A DNA stretch of 64,000 nt from a virus (IMGVR_UViG_3300032030_002018); one strand, 5' to 3'; positions 11,570 to 15,979 are shown, numbered from the stretch's first letter. Numbers and translations are program-made. The notes: a model not told the origin generated them from the sequence alone.

Positions 11570-14002
11570 ATGGTCGAGAAAATAACGCAACAAACTGTAA
11601 ATGACTTCCTTTTCGGACGAGACCCTATGGAACGGATAATAACAATCGAATGTGATTACACTGACGACGAGGTAAGCATAATCTATGTTGACGACAAAGG
11701 CGTAAAAAGGGTTAAAAGAGAACCTTTCAAACCATTTGCCTGGGTGAAGCATAGTGCCGCTATACGTATGTATCAAGGTAACAAGGGGACAATAAAGAGG
11801 AAGTTAATGGAGTACGGCATATGGGTGAAGTCTTTACAATCAAAGAAAACTGGAATTGATAGACTTGACAACGGATATGTGTATATGTTCTACGCGACAA
11901 GAAAGATGTCATTCACACAGTTCCTTTCATTCTTCACAGACGCTGGTACTCCAATATACGAAAGAAAGAAAAAGGGAAACGAACAAAATCAGGGTAGTAA
12001 AGAGTTTATGGTTGTCTCACCCGTTGAACAATATATGATTTCAACAGGTAAAAGATTGTTTAAAGGCTATGAAAACTATAACGAACTTAAAAGAATGTCA
12101 TTCGACATTGAAACACAAGGTCTTAACCCTTTAATTCATAGAATTGAACAAATTGGTATACGGACAAATAAAGGATTTGAAACCATAATAAGTGTAGAGG
12201 GTGAAACAGAAGAAGAAAAAAACCAAAATGAATTAAATGCCATAGAACAAACAGTACAAATAATAGCAGAAGAAAAACCTGATACAATATACGGTCATAA
12301 TTCAGAGAATTTCGACTGGGATTTCTTCATTGTTAGATGTGTTGTACTTGGAAGCAGTTTTGAGAAAATAACATCAAAATACCTTAAATTTCCGATATAT
12401 AAAAGGAAAAAGGAAACAATATTGAAACTTGGCGGTGAAATGGAATATTTCAAGCCAACAATAGCCTGGGGTTTTATAATATTGGATTCATTGCACGCTG
12501 TTAGAAGGGCGCAGGCACTCGATTCAAATATGAAATCCGCCAATCTTAAATATGTCACAAATTATCTTGACTTGAAAAAAGAAAACCGCGTATATGTACC
12601 AGGAAATATAATCAGCCAAGTGTGGAATGTAAAAGAAGAAAAATATGCTTTTAACGACAATAACGGAGATTGGTATGAAATCACAGACAAACATAAATTA
12701 CTTGACGGATATGAAAGAAAATCAGGTAAATATATAGTTGAAAGGTATCTATTGGATGATATATGGGAAGCGGAACAAGTCGAATTAAGATTAAATGAAT
12801 CAAACTTCCTTGTCGGTAAAATGCTCCCTACAACATTCCAACGTGCTTGCACAATGGGTACGGCTGGCATTTGGAAACTTATTATGCTTGCTTGGTGTTA
12901 TGAACAAGGAATATCAGTACCTTCAACAGGAGACAATAAACGATTCACTGGAGGTCTTTCAAGACTGCTTAAAACAGGATGGGTGGACAGGATTGTCAAA
13001 CTTGACTACAATTCATTGTACCCTTCAATCACTCTAACTTGGAACATATCAACAGAACTTGACCAAACGCATATTATGCTCCACCTTCTTGAATATGTGC
13101 TTACACAACGAGAGAAATACAAGGAACTCAAAGCAGAGGCCGGCAATGAAGTTGACAGATGGAAAAATATGCTTCAAGACGCGAGAACGGAAGAAGAGAA
13201 GAAACATATCAAGTCAGAGATACATAGATGGAAAGCTGAGAAAATGGCAAACGACAAGAAACAATTGCCTCTTAAAATTCTTGCAAACTCATTCTTCGGG
13301 TCATTCGGTGCAGCATACATATTCCCATTCGGAGACTCAAACTGTGCGGAGAAAATTACCTGTATAGGAAGAATGTGCCTGAGACTTATGATTTCACATT
13401 TCACAAAACTTGGATATATGCCAATAGTAGGAGATTCGTTCACAGCAGACACACCTTTATTTATAAAATATAACGATACTGGTTTGATTGACATAAAACC
13501 AATATGTGAATTGATAAATGAAAATAATATAAAAATAGATGGATTGAATAGGGAATACGATTACTCAAAAAAATCATTTAAGGTACTTTGTAGAAGTGGA
13601 TGGGTAGAACCTGAATACATATACCGTCATAAGACAGAAAAGCCTTTATATGAGGTTTCAGAAGGCGATATGAGTGTTACTGTAACAGAAGACCACAGTT
13701 TATTTAATAATAAACAAGAAAAAATTAAACCAAGTGAAATAAACGATGATACGAAACTTGAATATTACGATGGAAAAATTGAACATTCATATCTTAACAC
13801 CAACATTAAGAGAGTAATTCAAATTGGAAAAATGCTTAAAAATGGTACAATTGACAGAATTCCTGTTGAAATATTGAATCTAAATGAAAAACAAGGAATA
13901 CAAGCATTCTTGGATGTTGTAAAAGACTTGGACACTGAAAATATGTCTAAAACATTACAAGCAGGAATACAATTTATCAAAAATAAAATGGTATCGAGAT
14001 AG
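11570..14002 (+). CDS. polB: Family B DNA polymerase N-terminal part (622 aa) fused to the N-half of a split intein (188 aa)
   Basis: Exonuclease motifs FDIET, HNSENFD and YLLDD; motif A DYNSLYPS; motif B KILANSFFG; motif C broken after VGD. Confidence 0.93.
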   Translation: MVEKITQQTVNDFLFGRDPMERIITIECDYTDDEVSIIYVDDKGVKRVKREPFKPFAWVKHSAAIRMYQGNKGTIKRKLMEYGIWVKSLQSKKTGIDRLDNGYVYMFYATRKMSFTQFLSFFTDAGTPIYERKKKGNEQNQGSKEFMVVSPVEQYMISTGKRLFKGYENYNELKRMSFDIETQGLNPLIHRIEQIGIRTNKGFETIISVEGETEEEKNQNELNAIEQTVQIIAEEKPDTIYGHNSENFDWDFFIVRCVVLGSSFEKITSKYLKFPIYKRKKETILKLGGEMEYFKPTIAWGFIILDSLHAVRRAQALDSNMKSANLKYVTNYLDLKKENRVYVPGNIISQVWNVKEEKYAFNDNNGDWYEITDKHKLLDGYERKSGKYIVERYLLDDIWEAEQVELRLNESNFLVGKMLPTTFQRACTMGTAGIWKLIMLAWCYEQGISVPSTGDNKRFTGGLSRLLKTGWVDRIVKLDYNSLYPSITLTWNISTELDQTHIMLHLLEYVLTQREKYKELKAEAGNEVDRWKNMLQDARTEEEKKHIKSEIHRWKAEKMANDKKQLPLKILANSFFGSFGAAYIFPFGDSNCAEKITCIGRMCLRLMISHFTKLGYMPIVGDSFTADTPLFIKYNDTGLIDIKPICELINENNIKIDGLNREYDYSKKSFKVLCRSGWVEPEYIYRHKTEKPLYEVSEGDMSVTVTEDHSLFNNKQEKIKPSEINDDTKLEYYDGKIEHSYLNTNIKRVIQIGKMLKNGTIDRIPVEILNLNEKQGIQAFLDVVKDLDTENMSKTLQAGIQFIKNKMVSR
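13436..13999 (+). mobile_element. Split intein, N-terminal half
   Basis: Block A SFTADTPLFI starting with Ser; block B TVTEDHSLF (TxxH); no block F/G before the stop. Confidence 0.88.
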
Positions 14003-14023
14003 ACGAATTTGTAAATCATATGA

Positions 14024-14098
14024 TATTATTACAGCAATCTTGGGATAGATTATCCGTATGAAGTTTTTGAAGATAAAGAAAAAATTTTGGATAATTGA
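14024..14098 (+). pseudogene. Remnant C-terminus of a free-standing endonuclease gene (probably Vsr/DUF559-like homing endonuclease)
   Basis: Start-less frame YYYSNLGIDYPYEVFEDKEKILDN*, resembling from memory the C-termini of such phage endonucleases; lies between the intein halves. Confidence 0.5.
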
Positions 14099-14116
14099 AA
14101 TATTTTTATATCTTTA
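14086..14116 (+). promoter_or_regulatory. Bacteroidota-type promoter for the polB C-terminal half
   Basis: TTTG(14086-89)-N19-TATCTTTA(14109-16). Confidence 0.55.
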
Positions 14117-14157
14117 ATAGTATTAAAACAAATGTTTAATTAAAAAAATATAAAATT

Positions 14158-14277
14158 ATGTTAAATATCAAAAAAATGGAGGATAGCCAAAACATCGGTG
14201 TTGTGTACGACATTTCTCTTGATGGCACGGTAGTGAATGCCCTTGGGATGAATGTTATTAGCAACACCGATGGCTGA
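14158..14277 (+). CDS. polB: Split intein C-half (36 aa) plus the first C-extein residues TDG; not in the ORF track
   Basis: MLNIKKMEDSQNIGVVYDISLDGTVVNALGMNVISN|TDG*: block F VYDI, terminal SN, +1 Thr; restores GDTDG. Confidence 0.88.
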   Translation: MLNIKKMEDSQNIGVVYDISLDGTVVNALGMNVISNTDG

Positions 14278-14279
14278 AT

Positions 14280-14493
14280 GGTTTCAACTTTCAAATGCCG
14301 AAAAGCGAAGATTTTAGATACACAGAAGAACATCCATACATAAGTGATGGTGGAGGAAGAAATAGCATTAAAGGAAAGAAATATACTGGAATAGAAGCTG
14401 ACGTTGCTGAATTTGAAGATATATTCTTCAATCACCCATTTAACGGTGGAGTTAACAAATTTGGTTTAGGAATAGATGAATTTTGTGATGCCT
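14280..14493 (+). CDS. polB: PolB palm segment (exon between the frame discontinuity and the group I intron)
   Basis: GFNFQMPKSEDF...GLGIDEFCDA continues motif C in a shifted frame. Confidence 0.8.
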
Positions 14494-14750
14494 TAACAGA
14501 ATATGGGCACGTTAAATCCCTTTTAATTGACTTGGAACTCCAATTTGGACAACAGGGCGCAAGCAAGAATTTATATATGTTCTGTGCAGCGTGAACGACT
14601 AAATAAAGGGACGATTAATCAAAAACGATTAATTGATGCGATAGTCTGAACTCTATGGTAACATAGAGAGGGAAACCCGAAGAGATTTCCCCGTTCAATC
14701 AAAATGATTGAATCACGCTATATAAACCACGATAGCGGCGTAACAGATTG
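14494..14750 (+). ncRNA. Group I self-splicing intron (257 nt, no ORF)
   Basis: P1: exon UGCCU with IGS GGGCA (U-G at the splice site); P10 GAAUAU/GUAUUC; P3 UCCCUUU/AAAGGGA; P7 GACUA/UAGUC; P8; P9 with GUAA tetraloop; terminal G. Splicing gives in-frame DA-C-IQFSRKNYA. Confidence 0.92.
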
Positions 14751-15979
14751 GTATTCAGTTCTCACGCAAAAATTATGCCGACTTAATGCCTGACGGAAAA
14801 ACAAAGAAAGTCGGTAATACTATAAAATCAAGGAAAATGTCTGGATATTTGGAGAAATTCATTGACAGTGGTGTTGACTTGTTGTTAAGAGGAAACGGTC
14901 ATCAATTCTTGGAGAATTATTATTCTTACATTGATGATATATACAATTATCGTATTCCGATAAAGGATATAGCCTCAAAGGGTAATATAAAGAAAACGAT
15001 TGATGAATACAAAAATGACTGTAAGCAAGTAACAAAGGCTGGCAGCAAAAAGCCAAGACAAGCCTGGTACGAATTGGTAATTCAGAATAATATCAATGTA
15101 AATGTAAGTGATACAATATATTACATAAACACAGGTACAAAAAAGAATCATTCAGATGTAAAACGTATTACTCATCAATTTACTCAATATTATGGTGAAG
15201 AACAAGAATTGACAACAAAATTAAAAACATCAATATTAAAGGAATTATGCGAGAAAAACAACCTTATTTATAAGGATGTCAAACAGAAGGAAAGAAATGA
15301 GATGATAAAACCATATATTTCAAGGGAAGAAGACGAAATTGTATTGAATTGCAAAATGGTTCCGAATGAGATAATAAACAGTGACGATGTTGTTCTTTGC
15401 AGTGACGTTGAGGATATGGAATACAATGTTGAGAAATACATTGAGCAATTCAACAAGAGAATAAAAGGCTTGCTTGTTTGTTTCTCACCAGACATAAGGG
15501 ATTCAATATTAGTTAAAAAACCTTCTGAAAGAAAATACTTTACTGATGAAGAATCACAGCTAGTCTGTGGATATCCAAACAAAGAAACTGACCAAGACAC
15601 CTATGAGGCATTGATGACACCTGAAAAGAAGGAAATAAGTTTCTGGCTGTCAATAGGGGAAGTTCCACCATTTGTAAAGGAATGTGATATCGATTGGGAT
15701 AAATTAGTAGAAGAGTATAAAGAGAATAAAAAGAAAGAGGAAACTGAACTATTCCAACACGAAAATGAACAATATCTGAAAGCCTTGGATGAACTGACAG
15801 ATGAAGATATTGATGAATTTGAAAATGAAGGAACAATACCTAAATCATTGACAGATATTGTATATATGGATTCAGATATGCATTTCTATTTCAAAAACAT
15901 ATCAGAAAAAACAACACCTTCAACAGGAGGATATATATTTGATGACATCAAGAAAATTGAATACGATGTTTCTTATTAA
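14751..15979 (+). CDS. polB: PolB C-terminal exon (end of palm and thumb)
   Basis: The frame of the 14786 ORF extends upstream to IQFSRKNYADL (conserved KxY motif), then KVGNTIKSR. Confidence 0.88.

Follow-up and report, generated by a model that had tools for sequence, protein, structure and literature searches.

A phage family B DNA polymerase gene that appears to require RNA splicing, a short ribosome hop and protein trans-splicing

INTRODUCTION

To our knowledge, programmed translational bypassing outside yeast mitochondria is so far represented by a single homologous family, that of bacteriophage T4 gene 60. According to the account given in a 2022 preprint, the gene 60 bypass sits within a MobA homing-endonuclease cassette (bioRxiv 10.1101/2022.08.31.505936; Bonocora et al. 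2011, cited there); the preprint still terms this cassette unique, and describes one metagenomic case, MGS5, in which the same gene also holds an intein. In Escherichia coli, tRNAs are on record as hopping over stop codons at a low level (Weiss et al. 1987 and O'Connor et al. 1989, both cited in that preprint). Fractured genes, by comparison, carry a split intein whose halves flank a free-standing homing endonuclease (Dassa et al. 2009; PMC2677866), and a naturally split PolB intein is credited in that article to Nanoarchaeum equitans (Choi et al. 2006, cited in PMC2677866).

Here, we analyse polB in a 64,000-nt stretch of DNA (the window) from an uncultured phage with a genome of ~335 kb (IMGVR_UViG_3300032030_002018). 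To assemble its one active site, the RNA would have to be spliced, a decoding trick performed and the protein trans-spliced. The locus shares with T4 gene 60 a Gly take-off codon, a stop directly after it and a matched Gly landing codon; one protein drawn from two frames (for polB, as deduced from the sequence); and a setting in an essential phage DNA-metabolism gene split by a linked homing-endonuclease cassette. With PolB of N. equitans, an archaeal system known to us through its citation in PMC2677866, it shares a naturally split intein with separately encoded halves. Family B polymerases are not among the eight enzyme types of Dassa et al. (2009; PMC2677866).

RESULTS AND DISCUSSION

The sole family B polymerase gene of the phage

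The phage has one gene for a replicative family B DNA polymerase, and two selfish elements have colonised it; the gene's three interruptions lie within 1.3 kb (Table 1). The five pieces, when joined, yield 1104 aa, with 72.8% identity end to end to an uninterrupted 1104-aa homologue (P0001), and the nearest alignment gap is more than ~80 residues from every junction. The N-extein matches Pfam DNA_pol_B_exo1 and DNA_pol_B and a PHROG DNA polymerase family (2.8e-59), and shows 74% identity to P0001 and P0002, both homologues of 1104 aa; 55 of the 73 residues from TDG to DA, and 284 of the 408 in the last exon (where relatives read [AS]RKNYAD), are identical to P0001. An initial annotation of the window had divided the gene into these same pieces (N-extein, TDG, FNFQ...DA, split Cys codon and IQF exon), all of which lie where it placed them, and had predicted an enzyme of about 1104 aa; colinearity with uninterrupted homologues, fixed beforehand as the point on which the reconstruction could fail, is seen with P0001. 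Another intact polB, together with pseudogene decay, was its second such point; the locus is the sole PolB in the 334,687-bp virus record (96% complete). Gene callers cut polB into four ORFs, and such genes are therefore mis-annotated in phage catalogues.

Table 1. Features of the polB locus (positions in the window)
Feature	Position	Strand	Description
polB N-extein	11570-13435	+	622 aa; exonuclease domain, palm motifs A and B, first half of motif C; ends PIVGD
N-intein	13436-14002	+	188 aa (13436-13999), stop 14000-02; Ser1; block A SFTADTP, block B TEDH; starts SFTADTPLF
Spacer between intein halves	14003-14157	+	stops in all three frames
Homing-endonuclease gene remnant	14024-14098	+	75 nt, last 24 codons and stop; free-standing gene otherwise deleted
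C-intein	14158-14265	+	36 aa; blocks F and G, VYDISLDG...VNALGMNVISN
First C-extein codons, T-D-G	14266-14274	+	second half of motif C; homologues read GD-TDG-FNFQ
Proposed take-off codon GGC	14272-74	+	GGY in 45/45 distinct gap-bearing contexts
Coding gap	14275-14282	+	stop TGA 14275-77, AT 14278-79, landing Gly codon GGT 14280-82; gap proper TGAAT 14275-79
Exon FNFQMPK...GIDEFCDA	14283-14493	+	70 aa and first base (T14493) of Cys codon; frame differs from TDG
Intron P1	UGCCU 14489-93 with GGGCA 14505-09 (IGS)	+	U-G pair at 5' splice site
Probable group I intron, ORF-less	14494-14750	+	257 nt; terminal G at 14750
Intron P10	GAAUAU 14499-504 with GUAUUC 14751-56	+	readable in sequence
Intron P7	14597-601 with 14642-46	+	motif reading
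Last exon	14751-15979	+	GT (14751-52) of Cys codon, IQFSRKNYAD..., 408 aa and stop; coding to 15976; KxY motif, thumb

A split intein from a homing-endonuclease cassette

The intein divides motif C (GD|TDG), and its exteins are colinear with intein-less homologues. Contiguous LAGLIDADG inteins of 332-356 aa, homologous to the split intein and with homologous ends, occupy exactly the same insertion site in P0014, P0026, P0030, P0041, P0045, P0054 and P0073; the N-intein is 44% identical to that of P0041 over 117 aa (E 2e-26). Residues S1, T3, D5, T6, P7, T84, D86 and H87 of the N-intein are invariant (21 sequences), block B being T84-E-D-H87, and its tail, SKTLQAGIQFIK, is conserved; in the C-intein, V16, Y17, D18, I19 and V26-N-A-L29 are invariant (16 sequences), as is the SN|T junction. 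The terminal Asn and Thr+1 are present; as penultimate residue, the split forms have Ser and the contiguous relatives His, the usual residue at this position in inteins.

The intein halves lie on separate ORFs and are predicted to associate: a model of their complex gave an ipSAE of 0.93, against 0.00 for the best control, with a partner pLDDT of at least 78 and at least 92% of contacts common to the runs. Among 80 solved complexes, 58 pass the mark applied to such models, and among 110 mismatched pairs, 2 do; a pass may reflect likeness to solved split-intein structures, and it is support for association rather than proof. In distant relatives (L002-L009), 4.5 kb that include opposite-strand genes separate the two halves, which could thus be joined by trans-splicing only.

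The split intein and the gap described below descend from a mobile cassette composed of a split intein and a free-standing homing endonuclease. The relatives L014-L046 show exactly the fractured-gene layout of Dassa et al. (2009; PMC2677866), the window corresponds to their stage III (endonuclease lost), and L002-L009 to stage IV (halves dispersed). In contrast to the fractured genes of that study, the junctions are cysteine-free (Ser1, Thr+1) and there is an extra coding gap past the junction. The sister phage L025 (93-96% nucleotide identity) shares TGAATGGT and the intron, and between its intein halves lies an endonuclease gene of 1.4 kb; the protein matches phrog_559 (HNH endonuclease; 1e-84), and its C-terminus, ...YYSNLGIDYPYEVFEDKEKIL..DN, matches the remnant in the window. 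Since the gene is found in L025 and many other relatives, and the window has no free-standing endonuclease gene between the halves beyond this 75-nt 3' remnant, the window is a derived, endonuclease-less form. A search of the + strand of the spacer for a terminator-like site found none.

A probable group I intron at a conserved active-site position

Group I introns occur in phage DNA-metabolism genes (Rfam RF00028), and the polB element resembles them in the U-G pair at its 5' splice site, its terminal G, its insertion at a conserved active-site position and a candidate P3-P9 core; it differs in being ORF-less, in scoring below the Rfam gathering cut-off, and in residing in a gene that holds two other kinds of interruption. 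The RF00028 model aligned the P3-P9 core within 451 nt at 42.1 bits (E 1.6e-9) against a gathering score of 50, the region having no match to RF00028 at the gathering threshold. Removal of the element restores the polB frame exactly: the intron-less relatives L031, L018, L021 and L041 read DEYCDA-C-IQF, with TGT or TGC as the Cys codon, which is exactly the spliced product, and L023 aligns precisely across the junction. A 98% identical copy is present in L025, and the element partly resembles sequences found in Prevotella Lak phages, in a Desulfovibrio phage and in Staphylococcus phages. We conclude that this element is most probably a group I intron that, judging from these features, would self-splice.

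A conserved coding gap and a proposed ribosome hop

Three codons past the protein-splicing junction, the C-half is interrupted by a stop codon and a change of frame; the polymerase frame is itself shut upstream by TAG 14259-61, with no start codon before 14295. The exact 39-aa ORF comprising C-intein and TDG recurs on 23 independently assembled contigs, and the same layout is seen in L025; hence, the arrangement is not an assembly artefact. Moreover, small C-intein ORFs form 141 clusters, 102 of which end in ...SNTDG-stop.

We tabulated 57 distinct DNA contexts from 76 loci, 45 of them with a stop-containing gap. All 45 read GGY, then a gap that opens with a stop, then GGN-TTY. The gaps are of 3 nt (TAA), 5 nt (TGAAT, TGAAC, TGAAA or TAACT), 6 nt (TAGCTA, TAGTTA, TAACTA, TGAATA or TAGATA) or 7 nt (TAGCTGA); these lengths cover all three reading-frame relations, and the classes are interspersed on the C-extein tree. 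Among the marks of gene 60-type bypass found here are take-off and landing codons that match, the former followed directly by a stop, and independence of frame. In several relatives, a GGC take-off is paired with a GGA landing, a third-position mismatch. The codons 3' of the landing site are under purifying selection, as judged from pN/pS values of 0.05 for the four post-landing codons (FNFQ) of 41 hop-bearing relatives, and of 0.30 over 36 codons in interrupted sequences without a nearby ATG.

We favour, with a probability of about 0.65, a reading in which RNA splicing, a ribosome hop and protein trans-splicing would give one 1104-aa enzyme. The 257-nt intron would splice itself from the mRNA, joining ...GAU GCC U to GU AUU CAG... 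to complete a Cys codon. Translation of the C-half would start at 14158 and produce the C-intein and Thr-Asp-Gly, whereupon UGA would enter the A site; the peptidyl-tRNA-Gly would then quit GGC, the mRNA slide by 8 nt, and pairing be re-established at GGU. Decoding would restart at UUC in the new frame, with Gly inserted once and no residue added by the 8 nt, so that the chain would read TDG-FNFQ and contain a peptide spanning GDTDGFNFQMPK. Finally, the 188-aa N-intein of the N-half and the 36-aa C-intein of the C-half would associate and trans-splice, with Ser1, the terminal Asn and Thr+1 as nucleophiles, ligating ...PIVGD to TDGFNFQ... and thereby rebuilding motif C. Splicing and hopping, their efficiency and the single resulting 1104-aa chain are what we infer from the sequence comparisons. 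All three layers had been put forward in the initial annotation, and each has gained ground: the split intein from its conserved blocks, the homologous contiguous inteins at the same site and the separated halves in other phages; the intron from the agreement of its boundaries and junction Cys codon with intron-less relatives (DEYCDACIQF); and the translational jump from the family-wide GGY-stop-gap-GGN pattern, with gaps of 3, 5, 6 and 7 nt.

Ribosomes most likely hop over the gap, which would make this a rare natural case of translational bypassing. Several observations count against the overall reading, namely the GGC-GGA mismatches, the penultimate Ser of the split intein, the sub-cut-off score of the intron, the in-frame 3- and 6-nt gaps of some relatives and the lack of a conserved RNA structure around the gap. 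Further, termination at UGA would free a 39-aa C-intein-TDG peptide that could use up N-halves in dead-end splicing, a cost that is unexplained unless hopping is efficient, and unstimulated stop hops in E. coli are, as summarised in the 2022 preprint, of low efficiency (bioRxiv 10.1101/2022.08.31.505936). As far as those hops are summarised there, the polB gaps are like them in being short, between matched codons, across a stop and frame-independent, and in the 3-nt class nine nucleotides would specify one amino acid, as in the E. coli cases; by the same summary, the E. coli hops are synthetic or adventitious and inefficient, whereas many diverged wild phages preserve the polB design in what is their only polymerase gene.

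Without a hop, TGA would end a 625-aa N-extein-TDG product after trans-splicing, and a C-terminal fragment re-initiated at ATG 14295 (MPKSEDF...) would assemble with it non-covalently. This is the alternative that fares best: the ATG is 18 nt past the stop, and split, non-covalently assembled PolBs are known, by the citations in PMC2677866, from some T4-like phages and Methanothermobacter. It is nevertheless unlikely. The Met is the ancestral FNFQM residue, found also in uninterrupted homologues; 21 of the 52 distinct interrupted sequences lack an in-frame ATG for 38 codons or more, yet the intervening codons are under purifying selection; the FNFQ strand beside the catalytic DTD would go missing; and neither the constant Gly codon that precedes TTY after the gap, nor the constant stop after the first Gly codon, would be accounted for.

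Conventional recoding is a distinctly unlikely account of the gap. It would invoke a -1 (or +2) frameshift for the 5-nt class, readthrough for the 3- and 6-nt classes and a +1 frameshift for the 7-nt class, adding one to three residues to the motif C hairpin (here, TDG-LNG-FNFQ). As the 3- and 6-nt gaps preserve the frame, readthrough may operate in those relatives, and the middle codon in the 6-nt class, always CTA, TTA or ATA (Leu or Ile), could reflect translation. Against this, there is no slippery heptamer; a tRNA-Gly on GGC could not re-pair at -1 (UGG) or +2 (CUG); a search among the 16 tRNAs of the phage genome found no suppressor; three separate mechanisms would be required, although the lineages concerned intermingle on the tree; and extra residues never occur at this site in uninterrupted or contiguous-intein homologues. 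That the locus is a decaying pseudogene or an assembly error, its polymerase being dead and the phage relying on another enzyme, is most improbable: three interruptions in 1.3 kb and an endonuclease gene reduced to a remnant might suggest it, but this is the sole PolB of a 96%-complete genome, the arrangement recurs in independent assemblies and the sister phage, every exon is intact and colinear, the post-gap codons are under purifying selection, and the design is kept across deep divergence. Neither readthrough nor standard frameshifting nor separate initiation accounts for every class of gap, as the proposed peptidyl-tRNA-Gly hop does.

Relationship to gene 60 and wider implications

The polB gap is not homologous to gene 60, and the resemblance lies in the proposed mode of action only. 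The gap is of 3-7 nt, compared with 50 in T4 gene 60; the host genes (polB and a topoisomerase gene) are unrelated, as are the cassettes (a split intein with a zinc-finger endonuclease, and MobA); and the proximity to a protein-splicing junction has no counterpart in T4 gene 60. T4 gene 60 has a take-off hairpin, whereas none is conserved at the polB gap: RNAalifold on 40 sequences found no conserved RNA structure flanking the gap (-1.8 kcal/mol, no covarying pair). The polB gap therefore falls outside the gene 60 family, even if the two may act alike.

By analogy with T4 mobA/gene 60, we speculate that the gap may shield the site from the cassette endonuclease. A broader proposal, which we offer tentatively and regard as doubtful, is that the 5-nt gap belongs to a large family of natural, programmed hops of very short range (gaps of 3-7 nt and a 1-nt UUU-C slip variant), carried by the split intein/homing endonuclease cassette in jumbo-phage polB and kept because it disrupts the endonuclease target where the active-site coding sequence could not otherwise change; the T4 mobA/gene 60 solution would then have been invented a second time, independently. 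The dozens of diverged variants, differing in gap length, stop and landing codon, constitute a natural mutational series for what a ribosome requires in a short hop, and the locus illustrates the extent of colonisation by selfish elements that an essential gene can bear and still work. Additionally, the split intein, with Ser1 and Thr+1, is free of cysteine, and with its C-half of 36 aa it may serve as a protein-ligation tool.

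Organization and reconstruction of the interrupted polB gene

The virus record (334,687 bp, with an estimated completeness of 96%) contains a single family B polymerase locus, and the pieces of its interrupted gene lie exactly where the initial annotation had placed them, as both the ORF list and a translation in three frames show.

Features of the polB locus
Feature	Position	Strand	Basis or remark
N-extein	11570-13435	+	ORF list and three-frame translation
N-intein	13436-13999	+	ORF list and three-frame translation
Spacer, 155 nt	between N-intein and C-intein	+	all frames closed
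C-intein	14158-14265	+	ORF list and three-frame translation
TDG, then TGA	14266-74	+	three-frame translation
FNFQ...DA	14283-14492	+	frame other than that of TDG
Intervening 257 nt (putative intron)	14494-14750	+	ORF list and three-frame translation
IQFSRKNYA...	from 14753	+	three-frame translation

Joined together, the pieces comprise 1104 residues that share 72.8% identity with the uninterrupted homologue P0001 (1104 aa), without alignment gaps near the junctions; across the three sites, the homologues read PIVGDTDGFNFQMP...GIDEFCDATINFARKNYAD. The proposed polymerase is thus colinear with P0001, and the genome, having only the one PolB locus, holds no second intact copy. The threefold interruption itself is confirmed, and sequence comparison supports an interpretation in which intron splicing, a ribosome hop over a short stop-containing gap and protein trans-splicing would together yield one polymerase: we place the probability of this full model at roughly 65%. 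Protein splicing plus the hop would generate the junction peptide PIVGDTDGFNFQMPK, and excision of the intron the exon-junction peptide DEFCDACIQFSR.

The window has no close cultured relative. Searches of the phage collection with the locus (megablast) and with the C-extein (tblastn) gave zero matches, and the best matches there to the N-extein are polymerases of Salinibacter and Nostoc phages (~24% identity). Metagenomic homologues are close, the N-extein being 74% identical to the uninterrupted P0001 and P0002 (both 1104 aa).

A putative group I intron

The most downstream interruption aligns with the P3-P9 core of the Rfam group I model at 42.1 bits (gathering score 50; E 1.6e-9 in a 451-nt search); it is seen only with an E-value threshold, the window giving zero Rfam matches at the gathering threshold. 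Group I introns are known from phage replication genes. Both exons offer the expected pairings: for P1, UGCCU at the end of the 5' exon (14489-93) pairs with GGGCA (14505-09), placing U14493 opposite G at the splice site, and for P10, GAAUAU (14499-504) pairs with GUAUUC at the start of the 3' exon (14751-56); moreover, the terminal base of the intron is G14750. Four intron-less relatives (L031, L018, L021 and L041) read DEYCDA-C-IQF[AS]RKNYAD, with Cys as TGT or TGC, which is the predicted ligated product, and a further relative, L023, aligns to the window through 14491 and resumes at 14751. The sister phage (L025) has a copy that is 98% identical; there is no second copy in the genome. Sequences resembling parts of its core occur in Prevotella Lak phages, a Desulfovibrio phage and Staphylococcus phages.

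At this site, intron-less relatives present two exon variants, DA-CIQ-F and DA-TIN-F, of which the intron occupies the former; this difference may be a co-conversion tract dating from homing or loss of the intron. Additionally, positions 31-99 of L082, near the end of that locus and on the opposite strand of the stored sequence, show an 83% match to the initial 69 nt of the intron; as L082 lacks the gap, presence of the intron does not depend on the hop.

The split intein and its homing endonuclease

Split inteins are already known from fractured phage genes (PMC2677866), and the same source mentions one in the PolB of Nanoarchaeum. In seven homologues (1439-1469 aa), an unsplit, contiguous intein of 332-356 aa occupies exactly the GD/TDG site; it begins SVTYDTPI and finishes YVYDISADGTFVNALG..CHN, and for one of the seven homologues the precomputed Pfam domains are Intein_splicing and LAGLIDADG_3. 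The N-intein of the window is 44% identical to the contiguous intein over 117 residues, and the C-intein has VYDIS.DGT.VNALG in common with it. Ser1, T3, D5, T6, P7 and T84-x-D86-H87 are invariant across 21 N-halves, as are VYDI and VNAL across 16 C-halves, and SN/TDG terminates every split form. The N-intein alone retrieves no intein family from Pfam or PHROGs, and its intein matches among PDB sequences are weak (9hth at E 0.012).

That the split is genuine and ancient is seen from four viral contigs with a 54% identical N-intein: three opposite-strand genes lie 3' of the N-half ORF, and the C-half is a clean 516-aa ORF reading ...NVISNTDGFNFKLP, ~4.5 kb away. In this more distant clade (L002:4573-8561 and L009), the ~4.5 kb separator holds opposite-strand genes of 627, 392 and 265 aa; no endonuclease adjoins the polB halves, and there is no gap.

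A complex model of the two intein halves reaches an ipSAE of 0.93 (best control, 0.00), with a partner pLDDT of at least 78 and at least 92% of contacts common to the runs; among solved complexes, 58 of 80 attain this mark, and among mismatched pairs, 2 of 110, although, because split inteins have solved structures, the score measures likeness and is not proof of binding. In the model, residues 172-180, the N-half's conserved tail, pack against the C-intein. This placement points to the central part of the N-half (approximately residues 118-170), weakly similar to the LAGLIDADG region (E 0.099), as the leftover of a former endonuclease insert.

Most relatives have a free-standing gene between the intein halves, encoding repeated DUF723, DUF4379 or CapR zinc-finger modules; modules of this type have been described as DNA-binding elements of homing endonucleases in phages (bioRxiv 10.1101/2023.03.23.533998). 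The sister phage's copy matches the PHROG endonuclease families phrog_559 (1e-84) and phrog_9084, the latter a homing endonuclease. That phage and the window are 93-96% identical on either side of a point where the former has 1.4 kb and the latter 52 nt, and window positions 14024-14098 are the last 24 codons and stop of the deleted gene, which is complete in the sister phage (L025:2011-3441, 476 aa). The layout is that of the 'fractured gene' of Dassa et al. 2009 (PMC2677866), the window corresponding to a stage after endonuclease loss.

The stop-containing gap and a probable ribosome hop

What lies between the Gly codon of TDG and the Phe codon of FNFQ was tabulated for 57 distinct contexts, which came from DNA of 76 loci in independent assemblies, viral contigs and metagenomes.

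Classes of gap between TDG and FNFQ
Class	Gap sequence	Distinct contexts
No gap	none; C-half clean and continuous	8
1-nt	single T (GGN-T-TTC)	4
3-nt	TAA	2
5-nt	TGAAT, TGAAC, TGAAA, TAACT	14, including the window
6-nt	TAGCTA, TAGTTA, TAACTA, TGAATA, TAGATA	28
7-nt	TAGCTGA	1
Unclassified	continuous reading; no class assigned by the script	2

Every stop-containing gap opens with its stop, with GGC or GGT just before it and GGN-TTY just after it; on a quick C-extein tree, the classes are interspersed. Clustering at 90% identity places the 39-aa C-intein-TDG ORF in a group of 26 members, with an SNTDG-stop end in every listed member; when the search was widened, 141 clusters of small C-intein ORFs emerged, 102 of which end in TDG. 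The exact 26-nt hop pattern did not occur in viral contigs.

In the window, the polymerase frame is closed upstream by TAG (14259-61) and its first start is ATG 14295; of 52 distinct interrupted sequences, 21 have their first in-frame ATG at least 38 codons downstream. Nevertheless, pN/pS is 0.05 for the first four codons beyond the landing site, and 0.30 over the first 36 codons in sequences without a nearby ATG, a purifying signal which argues that these codons are translated, by ribosomes coming from the C-intein frame. Re-pairing of peptidyl-tRNA-Gly from the first to the second Gly codon is the sole move that yields the homologues' sequence in every class.

Stop-codon readthrough is unable to account for the 5-nt and 7-nt classes, and the genome's 16 tRNAs include no suppressor. 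These tRNA genes lie beyond the window (C1:252126-313943), mostly in one cluster, with tRNA-Gly(UCC) among them. Frameshifting by tRNA-Gly would require re-pairing that is impossible at -1 (UGG) and +2 (CUG). Internal starts fare no better: ATG 14278 opens a 21-aa dead end in the C-intein frame and is not conserved, and CTG 14274 is not conserved in relatives.

Several observations temper the ribosome hop, which we nonetheless regard as likely, and slightly more so than the full model. No conserved RNA structure was found at the site; known unstimulated hops are, as summarised in one preprint, inefficient (bioRxiv 10.1101/2022.08.31.505936); C-intein-TDG peptides released at termination would compete for N-halves; and the landing codon in some relatives is GGA, all four points counting against an efficient device like that of gene 60. 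Synonymous sites are almost invariant in the 14 nt that precede the stop (AGCAACACCGATGG; window 14260-14273 and 40 relatives), whereas wobble positions farther upstream in the C-intein are free to vary; a recoding signal, a constraint linked to the endonuclease or a co-conversion tract could each account for this.

Among known systems, T4 gene 60 and its homologues show bypassing, within a MobA endonuclease cassette, and in one metagenomic case in that group the gene contains an intein as well (bioRxiv 10.1101/2022.08.31.505936). Full-text literature on bypassing with inteins, homing endonucleases or polymerases yielded no report of an interrupted polB family or of conserved short stop-hops. 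The intein and intron add new members to kinds already known; the predicted hop would be a new natural variant of translational bypassing. As far as we have found, the occurrence of all three in one gene is undescribed.

In three small ORFs on short contigs (P0176, P0202 and P0225), a Trp or Leu codon replaces the stop after TDG and out-of-frame reading goes on; either the stop is less than fully fixed or the three variants are low-coverage-contig errors. At the site equivalent to window 14272-14285, L038-L046 and L078 have an extra T after the Gly codon (GGN-T-TTC-AAY), giving a small ORF that ends TDGFQLPNA-stop; in this 1-nt class, TDGFNFQ would be regained if tRNA-Phe slipped by +1, from UUU to UUC. 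L065, nearly identical to the insertion-bearing L041 and L043, is without the T.
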